Origin: a virus
Lineage: Duplodnaviria; Caudoviricetes
Length of the DNA: 64,000 nucleotides
IMG/VR virus record: IMGVR_UViG_2765235885_000002
Coordinates: 1,689 to 65,688 of that record
Strand: one strand, 5' to 3'
Positions 1,611 to 64,000 of the stretch are shown here, piece after piece. Each line of letters starts with the position of its first letter. The first letter of the stretch is position 1. The notes under the pieces are model-generated. The model was not told the DNA's origin. It worked only from the letters and a program-made list of their open reading frames with translations, and searched no databases. Made by a program: the position numbers and the translations under genes.

Positions 1611-2552
1611 TCAGGCGACCGAGCCGAGATACGCAGCGAGACCATGCGACGCATGGGTATCGAGGTTCAGCCGGCCTCTGTCGTAAATTCGGATCGTTGT
1701 CGAGATGTCCCGGTGCCGGGCGGCGAGCTGCACTTCCCGCAACGGGATACCCGCGTCGATGGCATTGGCGATCGCGCCGTGCCGCAGCGTATGCGGCGAC
1801 ACCACCATGTCGTTGATCGCAGCCTTGTTGGCGATGCGCTTCACGACCCGGTCCGCGGAACGACGAGTCATCCGCGTGCCGTCTCGACGGATGAACAACG
1901 CACCCTGCTTGTCCTCGAGCGATTCGATCACGGCATCGAGTGCACGCATGATCACCGGAGGCTGTGGCAGGGCGGCTGGATCGCCGCCCTTGCCGATGAA
2001 CGTGACGAGTCGATGCCCCTTCGAGTGATGCAGGACATCAGGAACGTTCAGCTCGCAGACTTCGCTAACGCGCATGCCGAGGTACGCCATCAGCCCGCAC
2101 ATCGCGTAGTCCGATACCGACGACTCGTACGCGGCCCGCAGGAACCGTTGCGTTTCCTCGCGGTTGAGGTGCACCTTCTGTGACAGGTCCAGCCTTGGCT
2201 TCGCCATGCGCACATTCCGGCACGGATTCTTGAAGATGTAGTCATCGTCGAGGGCGTACTCGTAGAACTGCCGCAGCGAGATGACGCGCCGGTTCACGCT
2301 GCGAGCGTTGTTCCCGCGGACGTCGGTCATGTAGCGGACGTACGCCTCGATCGTCATCCGGCGAGCGTGGAATGGGTGTAGGCCGTTGGCGTGCTCGGCG
2401 CACCATTCTCGGAACAGTCGGATATCCCGTCCGTACTCGACCCGGCTGGCGTCTCGGTAGCGGGACAGGAAGGCATCGATCAGCATCTCGAACTCGGCGT
2501 CATCCGGGATGGTGACGTTCGCGGGCAGACGGGTACCGTAATCGGCAGTCAT
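1611..2552 (-). CDS. Tyrosine recombinase, Xer-like (no arm-binding N-domain)
   Basis: Catalytic set visible: GMRVSE (R), GKG (K), HTLRH (HxxR), ARH (H), IRIYDR (Y); N-terminal core-binding domain; probable start ATG 2552. Confidence 0.93.
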   Translation of the reverse strand: MTADYGTRLPANVTIPDDAEFEMLIDAFLSRYRDASRVEYGRDIRLFREWCAEHANGLHPFHARRMTIEAYVRYMTDVRGNNARSVNRRVISLRQFYEYALDDDYIFKNPCRNVRMAKPRLDLSQKVHLNREETQRFLRAAYESSVSDYAMCGLMAYLGMRVSEVCELNVPDVLHHSKGHRLVTFIGKGGDPAALPQPPVIMRALDAVIESLEDKQGALFIRRDGTRMTRRSADRVVKRIANKAAINDMVVSPHTLRHGAIANAIDAGIPLREVQLAARHRDISTTIRIYDRGRLNLDTHASHGLAAYLGSVA

Positions 2553-2641
2553 AATCCAGGTCCATTCTGGTTGTGGCGAGGCCCCAGCTTTCGGTGTTCG
2601 CAGCACCTAGCTGGGGTCGACTTATTTCCAAGTCTCGCAAC

Positions 2642-2663
2642 ATCATACCGCGCGGCACCGACA
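2642..2663 (-). promoter_or_regulatory. PafBC/RecA-NDp-type DNA-damage promoter for the recombinase
   Basis: Minus strand TTGTCGG-TGCCGCGCGG-TATGAT = exact TGTCGG-N10-TANNNT. Confidence 0.75.
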
Positions 2664-59548: not shown

Positions 59549-59823
59549 GCCTTCACTCCCAACTCTTCGATGACCTGAGCGAGCGCCAACCACTGCGCCC
59601 GATACGTCTCCCGCAACGAGTTCTGCGACTTCCGTGCTGCCGCAGCCATATCCCGCGCCCGACCGATCGCATTCGGAAACAGGTTGGTGTTGAACACAGT
59701 TCGCACACCGTCATCCGTCACAGCCGCAAACACAGGCAGTGGACCGAACCCCGACCGGCGCGGGCACTCGGTGACAGTGACGTCCATTCCGTTGACGGTG
59801 ATGACACGAGAGGCGGCACTCAT
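59545..59823 (-). CDS. Hypothetical protein
   Basis: ATGA coupling. Confidence 0.6.
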   Translation of the reverse strand: MSAASRVITVNGMDVTVTECPRRSGFGPLPVFAAVTDDGVRTVFNTNLFPNAIGRARDMAAAARKSQNSLRETYRAQWLALAQVIEELGVKA

Positions 59824-60329
59824 GGCTTCCCCCCAACGACGGCAACCCAAGGAACCGGCTCACTGTCAGCACGCAAGTACAACGGGTGCCGAGGTGCACC
59901 GTTCTTTGTAATGCCCAGGCACAACAGACGATTCGACCCCGGCATTGCGGCGACCTGACGAACGCGATCGAGCCGTGCATTCGCACCCCAGGCCGCAATC
60001 ACCAGACCAGGACGACCCAAAGCGACTCGCAACGCAGTGTCGTTCTCGGGGCCGACCGGGTCATCAACGGTCCACAAATCCTGAGGTCTGGTTGCCCGGT
60101 ACGCGTAGAGATTCACGACATGGATGCCGTCGTAACCAAGCGTCCGAGCGAACCCGCAGCACCGACGGATAGTAGGGTCATCCTGCGACGCATCTGCAGT
60201 CGACGGATTGAGCATCACGAAGGTGAGCCAAAGGCCGCCACCCCATACTCGGCGAAGTGTGTATCGATACCGTCCATCGGACGACAACGAGGCCGAGCTC
60301 TCCACGCGTTCTGCACTTGGGGCGCTCAT
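59820..60329 (-). CDS. DUF1643 family protein
   Basis: YRY.L.R.W...VMLNPSTAD...DDPTIRRC...VVNLYAYRAT...AAWG...G.PRHPLY. Confidence 0.88.
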   Translation of the reverse strand: MSAPSAERVESSASLSSDGRYRYTLRRVWGGGLWLTFVMLNPSTADASQDDPTIRRCCGFARTLGYDGIHVVNLYAYRATRPQDLWTVDDPVGPENDTALRVALGRPGLVIAAWGANARLDRVRQVAAMPGSNRLLCLGITKNGAPRHPLYLRADSEPVPWVAVVGGKP

Positions 60330-60709: not shown

Positions 60710-60963
60710 TCGGCACCACCTAACGGGCCGCGACTCAAATCCGAACGCGCAGCACGAGACCGAGGCGACGCCAGCCCCGTCACATCCCGGATCACGCAAT
60801 CCTCGATGTCAGAGTTCGCGGTGATCATGTTCTTGACGGCACCCTGCTTCGACGCGTAGTCCTCAGTGGCAGCACCGACGACACGGTGGTTGCCGGCGCG
60901 GCGAGTCCACCGGAAACCGATGCCGCGAGCGCCATAGAGGGTGATGACATGCGGGGCACTCAT
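60706..60963 (-). CDS. DUF1508/YegP-like protein
   Basis: FRW.RRAGN.RVV...E.Y..K.GA..N. Confidence 0.65.
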   Translation of the reverse strand: MSAPHVITLYGARGIGFRWTRRAGNHRVVGAATEDYASKQGAVKNMITANSDIEDCVIRDVTGLASPRSRAARSDLSRGPLGGAE

Positions 60964-61190
60964 GCGGACCTCCGCAACCGGCGCGCGGGAGCCTCACCAG
61001 CGACCCACGCATCCAGATCGTCGACGTGGATCAGCCATGAGCCCTGCGGCTCCACCAACTGGCGGCCACGAAGACCACTACCTGGCTTCGCCTGCTCAGC
61101 CCACAACGCCTTGTACACGGAATTACGATGGCGGCGAACACGATCCGCCGCTTCCTGCACCGTCAGCCACGGTGACGTCGCGACGCTCAT
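60960..61190 (-). CDS. Excisionase-like HTH DNA-binding protein
   Basis: WLTVQEAADRVRRH...W.I...DLDAW. Confidence 0.8.
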   Translation of the reverse strand: MSVATSPWLTVQEAADRVRRHRNSVYKALWAEQAKPGSGLRGRQLVEPQGSWLIHVDDLDAWVAGEAPARRLRRSA

Positions 61191-61981
61191 GCCGTCGCCT
61201 CCAGTCGCTCAAGCAACCGCGACATTCCCTTGGGTGTAACCCGGACCTGGGGGCAGCGGATGTGCACACCACCGTCGTCGTCGACCCACTCGCCGGTCGG
61301 CTTCTCCGCCAGAACGCCGGAGTCCTTCGCGGACTGGTACGCGCGAGGCCGACCCTTGCTGTCCTGGAAGGTCCAGCGCATCATCCGCAGCGTCTCGAAC
61401 AGTCGCTTCTCGCCGGTCTCGATACCCGCACGACTGAGAACACCCGCACACTCGGACACCGAGTAGTCACCATCGGCCGAAAGGAAGTTGTCGAACTTCG
61501 CAGCCTTGGGTGCGAGTTCGCCGATCCGGTTTTCCTGCTCGGCTATAAGTTCTTGCATCGCATGCATGCCGATCGCGAGACGATCCTCACGAGTCATTGC
61601 AGCGGGCGCGGTCTCGGCCTCACGTGTGCGGATCGCGAAGTAGGACTGCGCCGCAGCGATTGCAGGCTTCCTCGGATCGCCATTCATTACGACGAGATAC
61701 GCACCGAAACGCGAGAGCTGGTAGTCGTCCGACGAACGCTGTGCCCCGCTACCGATCTCGACCATTTTGCTGACGCCGACAAAATGATCCTGAGCTGGAC
61801 TTCCACTGTTCTCGCACGCAATCTTTGCGCGATCGAGGGCGGCCGCGAAGTTGCGCCATGTCTCGTACTCGACGGCCTTCGAGAGCTCACGGGCCGACCA
61901 GTACTCCGAGCCGTCTGCTCGAACACGACGAATCGCGTCGAACGGGGATGGCTCCCCATGTCGTACCATTGGTACTGACAT
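61187..61981 (-). CDS. Antirepressor (DinD/BRO-like N-domain + KilAC C-domain)
   Basis: EYWSAREL...Y..WRNF...LSRFGAYLV.MNGDPRK; APKAAKFD.F...GEKRLF..LR. Confidence 0.88.
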   Translation of the reverse strand: MSVPMVRHGEPSPFDAIRRVRADGSEYWSARELSKAVEYETWRNFAAALDRAKIACENSGSPAQDHFVGVSKMVEIGSGAQRSSDDYQLSRFGAYLVVMNGDPRKPAIAAAQSYFAIRTREAETAPAAMTREDRLAIGMHAMQELIAEQENRIGELAPKAAKFDNFLSADGDYSVSECAGVLSRAGIETGEKRLFETLRMMRWTFQDSKGRPRAYQSAKDSGVLAEKPTGEWVDDDGGVHIRCPQVRVTPKGMSRLLERLEATA

Positions 61982-62036
61982 TGATCCTCATTTCTGTGTC
62001 GTTGCCGTCACCTGTTCGCCCAGGTGGCGGCGTTTT

Positions 62037-62348
62037 TTATGCAGCTTTTGCGGTAGTGCGCGTCCCACGCTTGGCGACTTTGGTTGGTGTAGTGGGCGAC
62101 TTCTTGCCCACGAAAAGAGTGCCGGGGAGCACGTCAAGCGCCTCCTCGATGAGCTCACCCATCTGCCGAGTGCACGTTGTCCGCTTGCCGTTGATGAGCA
62201 TGAAGATGAACTGCCGCGAGCAACCGCAGTAGCGAGCGAGCCGCGCCTGACTGAAGTCGTGCTTGTCCATGTACTTGACGATGAGCTCGGGGTCTCTGAC
62301 TTGCATCCAGATTCCTCTCGATCGTTTCCGCCGAATTGCGGTAGCCAC
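62037..62348 (-). CDS. Cro-like HTH regulator
   Basis: FSQARLARYCGCSRQFIFMLING; AAGGAG RBS; divergent from repressor. Confidence 0.85.
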   Translation of the reverse strand: MATAIRRKRSRGIWMQVRDPELIVKYMDKHDFSQARLARYCGCSRQFIFMLINGKRTTCTRQMGELIEEALDVLPGTLFVGKKSPTTPTKVAKRGTRTTAKAA

Positions 62349-62369
62349 AGTCTGCTCTCCTTCGCCTTG

Positions 62370-62530
62370 GTTGTCAACGACTTGCAGACAGAGAGTCGCA
62401 TACCGGTTGACGTTTCGTCAACACTTACACCGGTGTAGTTCAGCAGCGTGCAGGTCACGACCGGTATCAGTTGGTCTACGGTTAGTTGACACAATTGGCC
62501 GTCAAGTCGCCTAGGCCCAGTTGACATTGA
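62370..62530. promoter_or_regulatory. Repressor/Cro switch region with repeated GTTGAC/GTCAAC half-sites
   Basis: GTTGACG-TTT-CGTCAAC (62406-62422), TACACCGGTGTA (62426-62437), further half-sites at 62373, 62485, 62501, 62520. Confidence 0.7.
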
Positions 62531-62577
62531 GTTTTCGGCGGCTTGTGGACCCGGCGTGACTCTCGGAAGGTATTGGT

Positions 62578-63126
62578 GTGCACGAGTTCAATCGGTTCAT
62601 TCAGTCGCAGTGCGACCTACGTGGTTGGCGACCGTCCGAACTCGCCACACGCTCAGGCCTGTCACGGCAGCACGTATCCAAGCTGCTGAACGACAAGCGG
62701 AGCCACCTCGGACAGATGCCCGACGACAAGACCATCGCCGGTCTTGCCCAGGCATTCGAGGGCGTCTCCGAACAGACAGTCCGTGACGCAGCCGCACGAG
62801 CTCTAGGCGCGGTTGGGGAAGCGGAACGACAGGCAGAGCTCGACCTACAGCGGGTGTCGATAGACGCACTGCTGACCGAGATAAAACGAAGGGTTCAAGC
62901 AAATGAAGACACGGGCACGCAGGACACGCAGGGCGATCCGCAGATTGATGGAGAAGCTGGGACTCGCGGAACCCCCAATACACGCGCCGCTCACGGCGGC
63001 GCAGACAAGGTCACACCCTTGCGTAGGCGGAATCAAGGCTCGCAACCTGACCCGGCTATGCCTGGCGCGGCGTCGGAACGCGTGAAGGAGAAGACCGACA
63101 CGCCCGACTTTGAGCCGGGTTCATAA
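62578..63126 (+). CDS. Immunity repressor (XRE HTH; no S24 autopeptidase domain)
   Basis: WRPSELATRSGLSRQHVSKLLN; low-complexity tail. Confidence 0.88.
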   Translation: MHEFNRFIQSQCDLRGWRPSELATRSGLSRQHVSKLLNDKRSHLGQMPDDKTIAGLAQAFEGVSEQTVRDAAARALGAVGEAERQAELDLQRVSIDALLTEIKRRVQANEDTGTQDTQGDPQIDGEAGTRGTPNTRAAHGGADKVTPLRRRNQGSQPDPAMPGAASERVKEKTDTPDFEPGS

Positions 63127-63163
63127 CCAAACCCGCAGGTCAGCTAATTACAGTCGCGTAATT

Positions 63164-63185
63164 TGTCGGTACACCACCGCAGACT
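63164..63185 (+). promoter_or_regulatory. PafBC/RecA-NDp-type leaderless promoter for ImmA-like protease
   Basis: TTGTCGG-TACACCACCG-CAGACT then 7 nt to ATG 63193; one mismatch in -10. Confidence 0.65.
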
Positions 63186-63192
63186 CGTCGGT

Positions 63193-63627
63193 ATGCGATA
63201 CCACCCGTGGCGACGAGCCAGAGACGACTACCCCGAGTGGGAGATCGACTACACCAAGACGCTCCCCGACGGCGTGGCCGCCAAGATCGTCGACGGCGTC
63301 ATCTTCATCTGCGCATCCCTGACTCAGGCAGCGCGTAGATCGGCGCTCGGCCACGAGCTGGAGCACATCGACCGCGGCTCGGAGCATGACATCCCGGACT
63401 CGTGGTTTCGCCGCAAGGAAGAGCAGGCCGTCGACATTATCGCGGCCCGCAAACTCATCGAACTCGATGACCTCGTCGAAGCGCTCACGTGGACTCGTGG
63501 CCTGCCTGACCGCGAGTGCGCGTGGGAACTGTGGACCGATGTCCACACGCTCACGGTCAGGATCGCTCACCTCACGCCGGACGAGCGCCGCTATCTCAGT
63601 AACGAACTCGAACGGAGACAACTCTGA
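63193..63627 (+). CDS. ImmA/IrrE-family metalloprotease (anti-repressor)
   Basis: RR.ALGHELEH (HExxH), EEQAVD..AARKLI; directly after repressor. Confidence 0.9.
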   Translation: MRYHPWRRARDDYPEWEIDYTKTLPDGVAAKIVDGVIFICASLTQAARRSALGHELEHIDRGSEHDIPDSWFRRKEEQAVDIIAARKLIELDDLVEALTWTRGLPDRECAWELWTDVHTLTVRIAHLTPDERRYLSNELERRQL

Positions 63628-63776
63628 TGTGGACCGACTGGACGAACCCAAAGACCGGCATCGTTGAGCAAGTGTGGGCCTGCCGCATGGGTCCGACACT
63701 GAACGAGGTCATGGACGAGAAGTGGGAGGCCGAGCTTCACGCGGCCGACCCTGAGGGAAACGAATGGGGAGCATGA
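63627..63776 (+). CDS. Small acidic protein (49 aa), not in ORF track
   Basis: TGATG and ATGA coupling; MWTDWTNPKTG... Confidence 0.6.
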   Translation: MWTDWTNPKTGIVEQVWACRMGPTLNEVMDEKWEAELHAADPEGNEWGA

Positions 63777-64000
63777 CACCACAACAGGAAGAGATCCTGA
63801 AGTTCGAAAAGCGTTGGTACACAGCGCCAGGAAACAAGGAAGCCGACATTCGTGACCAGCTCGACCTGTCGGCGGTGCGCTACTATCAGCTTCTCAACGC
63901 ACTACTCGACGACCCGGACGCTCTCAAGGCCGACCCGGTCCTCGTGAAGCGACTGCGCCGCATCCGCGATAGTCGGGCGACACTACGAAGGGCCGGATAA
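63773..64000 (+). CDS. DUF3263 family protein
   Basis: IL.FEKRW....G.KEADIR..L.LSAVRYYQLLNALLDDP.AL..DP.LV.RLRR.R. Confidence 0.85.
   Translation: MTPQQEEILKFEKRWYTAPGNKEADIRDQLDLSAVRYYQLLNALLDDPDALKADPVLVKRLRRIRDSRATLRRAG

Follow-up and report, generated by a model that had tools for sequence, protein, structure and literature searches.

The 64,000-nucleotide stretch analysed here (the window), which covers 64,000 of the 65,688 bases of the virus record IMGVR_UViG_2765235885_000002, carries close to its right end a candidate lysogeny switch, in which the gene for a putative ImmA/IrrE-like metalloprotease directly follows a repressor gene and is preceded by a short sequence resembling the promoters that are activated by the host DNA damage regulator PafBC. 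With rather more confidence than doubt, we regard the segment 63164-63193 as a PafBC-dependent promoter of the 'sigma adaptation' or RecA-NDp type, which would head a damage-induced operon whose protease inactivates the repressor. The operon predicted to start there comprises the protease gene, a 49-amino acid open reading frame (ORF), a gene for a NapA-like DNA-binding protein and a tyrosine integrase gene. That prophage induction is brought about by PafBC-driven transcription of the protease had been the original prediction, derived from the letters of the window, and this reading appears well supported by the comparison with related phages, from which we infer dependence on PafBC, induction by damage, repressor cleavage, the binder of an adjoining palindrome and the role of transcription as the trigger. 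What that prediction had missed is that the promoter heads an operon, that the palindrome beside it is a conserved two-copy element and that a second motif in the window lies on the opposite strand.

Read directly, the -26 element TGTCGG (63164-63169), a 10-nucleotide spacer (63170-63179), the -10 box CAGACT (63180-63185) and a spacer of seven nucleotides lead to the ATG at 63193, base for base as first described. Equally, a Shine-Dalgarno-like purine run was not seen before this ATG, in line with the claimed lack of a ribosome-binding site, and the inverted repeat AATTAC-N6-GTAATT was read immediately adjoining TGTCGG. The published PafBC motif, tGTCgg(N10)tA(N3)T, has its -26 element between -23 and -28 and lacks a -35 box (PMC8635444). 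The window site fits this motif at all strongly conserved positions, namely GTC and the A and T at the second and sixth positions of the -10 box, which starts with a C where the published consensus has a weakly conserved t (PMC8635444). A sigma-70 consensus scan of 62250-63300 found neither a promoter-like site nor a -35-like hexamer, the -35 position of the promoter being taken up by the palindrome, and the LexA box TCGAAC-N4-GTTCGA was not found in 63090-63200.

Taken by itself, the window does not lift the motif beyond chance; its significance comes from conservation upstream of homologues. The strict pattern TGTCRG-N10-TANNNT matches once in the window against 0.43 matches expected, the one match being the site at 2642-2663, and a relaxed pattern matches five times against 0.84 expected, three of these matches (21472, 57290 and 59322, all on the minus strand) being taken as chance as they lie within coding sequence without a start codon after them. 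A full-library HMMER search provided 570 family representatives of the protease; 80 viral and 8 genomic loci were fetched in addition to a 68%-identical metagenomic relative, and 72 non-redundant loci, with relatives of the protease at 36-69% identity, were compared. Just before the start codon, a PafBC-type box (tGTCgg-N10-tANNNT) is present in 53 of the 72 loci, an actinobacterial LexA box (CGAAC-N4-GTTC[GT]A) occupies the equivalent place in 13, and six have neither box. The strict motif is found in 44 of 66 promoter windows of 100 nucleotides each, compared with five matches in 722,142 nucleotides elsewhere in the same loci, such that motif and spacing recur upstream of homologues as the original prediction had anticipated. 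From the end of the -10 box to the start codon there are 6, 7 or 8 nucleotides in every PafBC-type locus read, a distance from which the transcripts are predicted to be leaderless, starting at the start codon itself, and the leaderless geometry first proposed for one site thereby extends to its homologues. The family promoter consensus, TTGTCGGTG-N8-TAGCGT, is by sequence comparison the published PafBC/RecA-NDp motif (PMC8635444). Although the strict pattern is no commoner in the window than in shuffled sequences and the -10 box of the window departs from TANNNT, it is scarcely credible that TGTCGG-N10-CAGACT matches by chance or belongs to a constitutive sigma-A promoter of the ordinary kind that has nothing to do with PafBC; such an explanation appears already contradicted by the enrichment of the strict motif in the homologous promoter windows, by the GTC triplet, the spacing and the leaderless distance, which are fixed among homologues, by the missing -35-like hexamer and by the LexA box at the equivalent place in the 13 other loci.

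The closest relative (locus L003, with a protein 67-68% identical) illustrates this conservation, as the 3' end of its repressor gene cannot be aligned to that of the window, whereas hardly any difference is seen between palindrome and ATG and the promoter geometry is identical despite the diverged flanks. An equal promoter is found in Sbash, Dori, Xavia, Che9c, Thimann, Shlim410 and prophiGD12-2, and most related phages of Mycobacterium, Gordonia and Rhodococcus are, as judged from these loci, wired likewise. In two of them, Gordonia phage Shlim410 (gene 40; L102) and prophiGD12-2 (gene 5; L098), the deposited protease starts either precede the palindrome and PafBC box or fall within them; these are probable mis-annotations, with the true start 7 nucleotides past the -10 box, which in Shlim410 is the ATG of M-Y-H-P.

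The LexA SOS box at the equivalent place in 13 loci argues that damage-inducible transcription of the protease gene is the selected trait, by way of whichever host regulator is used. In a maximum-likelihood tree of the protease, promoter class requires eight changes, at least two of which are forced by well-supported branches, and damage-responsive control would therefore have been acquired or swapped repeatedly. In three of the six loci without a box (L036, L093 and L094) the protease gene overlaps the upstream gene and is therefore expected to be co-transcribed with it, an arrangement similarly seen in the phages REQ2 and GMA4. On the host side, the region upstream of recA in Gordonia soli, the host of L096, contains a LexA box and, about 130 nucleotides on, TGTCAG-N10-TAGCGT (L105, minus-strand positions 1204 and 1348), which corresponds by sequence to the mycobacterial two-promoter arrangement and indicates its conservation in Gordonia. 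In three hosts of related prophages, WYL genes lie in tandem pairs, the arrangement that pafBC would show.

The protein encoded directly behind the promoter has 144 amino acids and is predicted to adopt the IrrE/ImmA fold. Its HExxH residues H54, E55 and H58 are invariant in an alignment of 49 diverse family members, and E77, at the position of the downstream acidic third ligand, is nearly invariant (at least 90% of the 49 sequences). The N-termini of the family line up at M-x-x-HPW, which supports the ATG at 63193 as the start, and a 60%-identical relative has a precomputed match to PF06114. An AlphaFold (AF2) model with a predicted local distance difference test (pLDDT) value of 96.7 superposes on Deinococcus IrrE (3dte) with a Z score of 9.9 over 124 aligned residues (root mean square deviation 3.8), on PprI with Z 9.4 and on the IrrE-like domain of Mycobacterium tuberculosis PrpR with Z 8.9, and the next structural tier consists of unrelated zinc peptidases with Z 5.6 or lower. 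The whole chain covers the N-terminal peptidase and the helical, helix-turn-helix (HTH)-like segment of IrrE/PprI, the GAF-like domain being absent from the 144-amino acid protein. Fold and invariant HExxH together uphold the earlier designation as ImmA-like protease. Among phage records, 264 contain the protein (218 from Gordonia, 38 from Mycobacterium and 4 from Rhodococcus), labelled as metalloprotease, IrrE-like or HTH protein.

As originally stated, the adjacent candidate immunity repressor is devoid of a self-cleavage domain, since a Pfam search retrieves HTH_3 but no Peptidase_S24 nor anything else relevant. Mycobacteriophage Sbash exhibits an equal gene order (genes 47 to 40, of which 44-47 form the leftward part and 43-40 the repressor side), with gp43 as the positional equivalent of the repressor, as is gp40 in REQ2, and the arrangement is also found in GMA4. 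The proteins encoded just upstream of the protease are highly diverse, and many are BLAST singletons. Nevertheless, a short pattern is shared by their tails, A[AV][SRK]x being present in the last 45 amino acids of 30 of 68 upstream proteins compared with 0.07 expected per 45 amino acids. The pattern consists of a hydrophobic or small residue, Ala-Ala, Ser or Arg, Arg or Lys and an acidic tail, is located 11-32 residues from the C-terminus and is found with all three promoter classes (PafBC-type, LexA-type and co-transcribed), including Sbash gp43 (LAARR) and REQ2 gp40; in the window it reads PGAASERVKEK. In Listeria, where the protease MpaR of the same family cuts its repressors, a conserved patch among differing repressors marked the cut site TIAA|H (PMC6872733). 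By analogy, AA(S/R)(R/K) may be the recognition or cleavage site of the protease. A second tail motif, (D/E)NVT(P/A/S)L, was noticed 20-40 residues before the AA(S/R) motif in several otherwise unrelated repressors, namely those of the window (62990-63020, repressor residues of about 140-150), L003, L012, L017-L029 and L034.

PafBC-type promoters are not restricted to the protease operon in these phages. The second motif reported for the window is real and a perfect match, located on the minus strand before the gene of a XerC/D-like tyrosine recombinase; window counts by themselves prove little against chance. The recombinase is distinct from the integrase and is encoded between the late genes and the attachment end. 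Here the box is followed by a leader of about 85 nucleotides with a stable hairpin (z -2.95) rather than by a leaderless start, and the homologue in L003 (L003:9743-10790; 54% identical) has the variant box TGTCGC-N10-TAGACT and a similar leader. Stand-alone large serine integrases, with protein starts MRAIIY... or MPAIIY... and facing against the protease operon, have a PafBC-type box of their own 6-7 nucleotides before the ATG in L003 (position 8051), L085 (5045) and L096 (5065), all on the minus strand. Recombination functions, including the expression of integrases, thus seem from their upstream sequences to be wired to PafBC and DNA damage in these phages.

Several observations weigh against the protease operon being the switch in the manner proposed. 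The -10 box CAGACT is weaker than the family norm TAGCGT; Pfam PF06114 (M78/DUF955) matches the 144-amino acid protein with E 0.0076 and 16.5 bits, below the gathering score of 22 bits; and pafBC in the window's own host is assumed from relatives. The tail motif of the window repressor is just 17-19 residues away from the C-terminus, and a cut there would therefore not part the HTH from the remainder, which makes a docking site or another route possible. A terminator scan of 62250-63300 found none between the repressor and protease genes, such that read-through from the repressor promoter may provide basal protease. For Sbash, expression of genes 40-43 in lysogens is reported (PMC6426596); the protease transcript would therefore be insufficient for induction, dose or post-translational activation must matter, and basal protease is probably present in lysogens. 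Furthermore, among the relatives PprI and CapP are directly activated by single-stranded DNA (ssDNA) according to work cited in PMC12392091, and PprI binds ssDNA in PDB 8sln.

The missing terminator, expression in Sbash lysogens and ssDNA binding by PprI equally fit an alternative in which the promoter is truly of the PafBC type, but has excision as its main job, the protease being already present by read-through and activated post-translationally, for example by ssDNA, with transcription as an amplifier and not the trigger. Consistent with such a role, leaderless PafBC-type promoters directly precede the stand-alone serine integrases of L003, L085 and L096, the phage integrase is translationally coupled to the operon, and six loci without a separate promoter, including REQ2 and GMA4, co-transcribe protease and repressor. 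This alternative deserves to be taken seriously, yet we consider it somewhat unlikely, as the promoter stands immediately before the protease and not the integrase gene in 53 loci, the LexA-type loci likewise have their SOS box at the protease gene, and the 144-amino acid protein is without the GAF-like sensor domain of IrrE/PprI.

Still more improbable is that the 144-amino acid protein acts as a DNA-binding regulator, or as a protease with another substrate, and that the HTH repressor is inactivated otherwise, for example by the Bro/KilAC antirepressor. The sub-threshold M78 score, several phage records that say 'helix-turn-helix DNA binding domain protein', the weakly HTH-like residues 89-143 (Z 3.7-4.7) and the annotation of an immunity repressor two genes further upstream in Xavia, Shlim410 and Thimann would be in agreement with such a function. 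The HExxH, invariant, and E77, nearly so, in 49 diverse members speak against it, as do the superposition of the whole chain on IrrE/PprI, in which the peptidase core is itself followed by a helical, HTH-like stretch, the C-terminal motif common to unrelated neighbouring repressors and an architecture equal to ImmR-ImmA-Int.

The palindrome that adjoins the PafBC-type promoter proved to be a conserved element with two copies. In the form AATTACA-N4-TGTAATT with up to three mismatches it has exactly two matches in the 64 kb (0.35 in shuffled sequences), and AAT(T/G)ACA-N4-TGTA(A/G)TT precedes the -26 element in 49-50 of the 53 PafBC-type loci, whereas none of the 19 remaining loci has it. It usually stops 17 nucleotides ahead of TGTCGG, and adjoins it in the window, L003, L041 and L032. 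A second copy further upstream, mostly just before the repressor gene, exists in 25 of the 53 PafBC-type loci, as opposed to one match in all shuffles. The palindrome is absent at the recA promoter of G. soli. It was rejected as a terminator, since the stem is AT-rich and without a T run, and equally as an operator of the adjacent repressor, since the adjacent proteins are highly diverse and the divergent control region has palindromes of its own. The latter role is also opposed by L048, which encodes the HTH closest to that of the window repressor (53%) and possesses a LexA-type promoter without the palindrome in the promoter window, a single weak match with three mismatches being situated further upstream. 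In the control region, repeats are present at 62372-62389 and 62474-62491 and at 62403-62414 and 62517-62528, along with TTGACGtttCGTCAA at 62407-62421; at least four TTGAC/GTCAA-type half-sites and palindromes within 62372-62528, distinct from the AT-rich palindrome, are probably phage-specific operators for the repressor and Cro.

A candidate for binding the AT-rich palindrome is encoded in the same operon. The small protein encoded after the 49-amino acid ORF matches Pfam DUF3263 (PF11662) with E 2.3e-30 and M. tuberculosis NapA (Rv0430; 9n2n/9n2g) with E 1.6e-20 over residues 4-76 (73 residues; 54-55% identity in the Foldseek alignment; Foldseek probability 1.00). PDB 9n2n represents NapA on AT-rich DNA, and NapA prefers AT-rich DNA (Datta et al. 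2019, as cited in PMC10665949). The NapA-like gene follows the protease in 46 of the 53 PafBC-type loci and is missing from the other classes; four loci, however, have the palindrome without the gene, the link between the two therefore not being strict. The phage NapA-like protein or host NapA may thus be the best candidate for the palindrome binder.

Combined into a working model, the XRE-type repressor would silence the leftward Cro/antirepressor/Xis operon in the lysogen. Upon DNA damage, ssDNA would lead to activation of host PafBC, which would insert between sigma-A region 4 and the -26 element and thereby raise transcription of the operon, the transcript starting at or beside the A of the ATG at 63193 and being translated without a leader. 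The protease would build up and inactivate the repressor, probably via the conserved C-terminal AA(S/R)(R/K) tail, while the integrase and the NapA-like protein would rise together with it and prepare excision. A conserved protein, with NapA-like protein or host NapA as best candidate, could bind both copies of the palindrome and modulate both promoters.

The model can be extended to a self-locking device. The fragments of LexA are destroyed after autocleavage via an exposed ssrA-like end by ClpXP, and the repressor of mycobacteriophage BPs carries an ssrA-like tag. Similarly, a cut of the protease after Ala-Ala could expose an ssrA-like ...xAA end, by which ClpXP would take the whole repressor, and the NapA-like protein on both palindromes could shut the repressor promoter, tune its own promoter and subsequently serve as an architectural factor for the integrase. 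We judge this PafBC-driven device in its entirety to be unlikely; if true, phage induction in Mycobacteriales would be largely independent of RecA and LexA.

The position of the operon within the genome is in agreement with a lysogeny module (Table 1). In the bacterial assembly GCA_002259095.1, contig NOZJ01000009.1 (L001), where the protease gene is identical and the gene order equal, the final gene of the window is followed with a 1-nucleotide overlap by the gene of a 400-amino acid tyrosine integrase, translationally coupled to the operon, and then by host genes; the window therefore stops within the lysogeny module of a prophage. Based on the ORF list and Pfam, Cro-like HTH, Bro-N/KilAC antirepressor and HTH_17 excisionase-like genes are arranged leftward, and genes for the XRE-type HTH protein, the 144-amino acid HExxH protein, the 49-amino acid ORF, the DUF3263 protein and, beyond the window, the integrase are arranged rightward, a layout which by gene content corresponds to ImmR-ImmA-Int. 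For the 49-amino acid ORF, which is missing in L003, no family match was obtained. No DNA similarity to 62000-64000 was detected in the phage collection and merely short unrelated matches in the plasmid collection, and no Rfam family was recovered anywhere in the window. Among sequencing runs, a search retrieved small shares of 0.17 or less, in the form of contigs.

Table 1. Features of the lysogeny module and of the second PafBC-type promoter, in window positions.
Feature	Position	Strand	Remarks
PafBC-type promoter (predicted)	63164..63185	+	-26 element TGTCGG, N10, -10 box CAGACT
Gene, predicted leaderless, for the 144-amino acid ImmA/IrrE-like (M78/COG2856) predicted zinc metalloprotease	63193..63627	+	HELEH residues 54-58 (63352-63366)
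Candidate immunity repressor, 182 amino acids, N-terminal XRE-type HTH, disordered acidic tail	62578..63126	+	HTH_3 residues 13-42
C-terminal motif AASERVKEK (Ala164-Ala165-Ser166 onward)	63067..63093	+	candidate protease recognition/cleavage site
AT-rich palindrome, promoter-proximal copy AATTAC-N6-GTAATT	63146..63163	.	half-sites 63146-63151 / 63158-63163; about -47 to -30
AT-rich palindrome, upstream copy ACTTACA-N4-TGTAGTT	62423..62440	.	in divergent control region
Divergent intergenic control region	62349..62577	.	TTGAC/GTCAA-type palindromes
49-amino acid ORF	63627..63776	+	overlaps protease gene by 1 nucleotide, NapA-like gene by 4-13 nucleotides
NapA-like (DUF3263) small DNA-binding protein gene	63764..64000	+	likely true start ATG 63773
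Cro-like HTH gene	62037..62348	-	first in leftward early/lytic operon; Pfam HTH_3
Bro-N/KilAC antirepressor gene	61187-61981	-	Pfam ANT/Bro-N
HTH_17 excisionase-like gene	60960-61190	-	Pfam HTH_17
Second PafBC-type promoter, TTGTCGGTG-N8-TATGAT	2642..2663	-	perfect match
XerC/D-like tyrosine recombinase gene	1611..2606	-	probable start ATG 2552; Pfam Phage_integrase + SAM_1

Two further observations concern the distribution of the module and its surroundings. A DUF1643 gene within the early leftward operon (59820-60329, minus strand) has DNA-level relatives in the plasmid collection only from Gordonia, Rhodococcus and Mesorhizobium plasmids. The module is also carried by nearly identical phage-like contigs, each about 39 kb long (L089-L092), which are filed in metagenome-assembled genomes labelled Dehalococcoidia, Stappiaceae and Gammaproteobacteria, and most likely represent mis-binned actinophage.

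The candidate switch shares features with several characterized systems. As in the ImmR/ImmA pair of the Bacillus subtilis element ICEBs1, phi105-type pairs and the MpaR/CI-like systems of the Listeria monocin and phi10403S (PMC6872733), an XRE repressor without a self-cleavage domain is followed, in the same orientation, by a small HExxH protease and an integrase. As with ImmR/ImmA and MpaR, the module is divergent from the lytic/excision operon and employs a protease-type anti-repressor, with cleavage being predicted in the present case. In those systems, in contrast, the protease is co-transcribed with the repressor and activated post-translationally, whereas here a shorter protein (144 amino acids) has its own damage-type, leaderless promoter and is coupled to a NapA-like gene. 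ImmA is activated by RecA or RapI.

Also the M78 protease IrrE (PprI) of Deinococcus, the best structural match, acts in a damage response that is independent of LexA and cuts an XRE repressor, DdrO, close to the C-terminal part; unlike the phage protein, IrrE is constitutive, activated by zinc or ssDNA, equipped with an extra GAF-like domain and dedicated to a chromosomal regulon and not a phage switch. Coliphage 186 possesses Tum, a trans-acting antirepressor under the control of LexA, and according to what Lemire et al. reportedly found in 2011, antirepressors of the Gifsy prophages are under LexA control as well. In common with these, a host damage regulator would control transcription of an anti-repressor gene, such that the repressor needs no RecA-stimulated autocleavage; while Tum and the Gifsy antirepressors act by non-covalent binding to the repressor and are themselves repressed by LexA, the effector here is of the protease type with mostly an activator, PafBC, as input. 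The parallel with 186 Tum and Gifsy is closer for the 13 relatives that have a LexA box. The NapA-like protein is homologous to M. tuberculosis NapA over 73 residues, and the AT preference of NapA fits an AT-rich palindrome in a genome of 62% G+C; NapA is, however, a chromosomal nucleoid-associated protein, whereas the phage copy is encoded in a damage-type operon beside the integrase.

The promoter itself has its counterpart in mycobacterial PafBC promoters such as recA P1, with tGTCgg at -23 to -28, N10 and tA(N3)T without a -35 box (PMC8635444; PMC6789036), but host PafBC promoters do not share the AT-rich palindrome upstream of the -26 element. In the papers searched, all PafBC targets described are chromosomal repair and stress genes, and no phage lysogeny-switch operon is among them. 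A full-text literature search, with subscription journals outside it, retrieved no link of PafBC to prophage or lysogen induction in Actinobacteria, and in the PafBC literature searched phages appear only in connection with T4 AsiA/MotA or defence systems. The circuit as we read it departs from the known systems by relying on PafBC as an activator, by its leaderless hybrid promoter and by the coupling of the protease to a NapA-like protein and an integrase.

To our knowledge, it is largely unknown how temperate actinobacteriophages sense DNA damage. Their repressors are mostly without a LexA-like self-cleavage domain, and the mycobacterial damage response proceeds mostly via PafBC and not LexA. 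The question is of relevance, as such phages are used or considered for the therapy of Mycobacterium abscessus infections and prophages fill clinical isolates. The start codons of deposited phage genomes can be corrected on the basis of the promoter, and phage DUF3263 genes gain NapA as a structural relative. At one and the same gene, related phages have either a PafBC or a LexA box or lack both, which provides a natural experiment, and the circuit is amenable to testing in Mycobacterium smegmatis, since the promoter is present in Sbash, Che9c, Dori and Xavia and published PafBC work has made use of pafBC, recA and lexA mutants. A switch plugged into PafBC would, if true, explain induction without RecA-stimulated autocleavage of the repressor and extend the PafBC regulon to mobile elements, and the wiring suggests that prophages of these phages may wake up independently of LexA after DNA damage.

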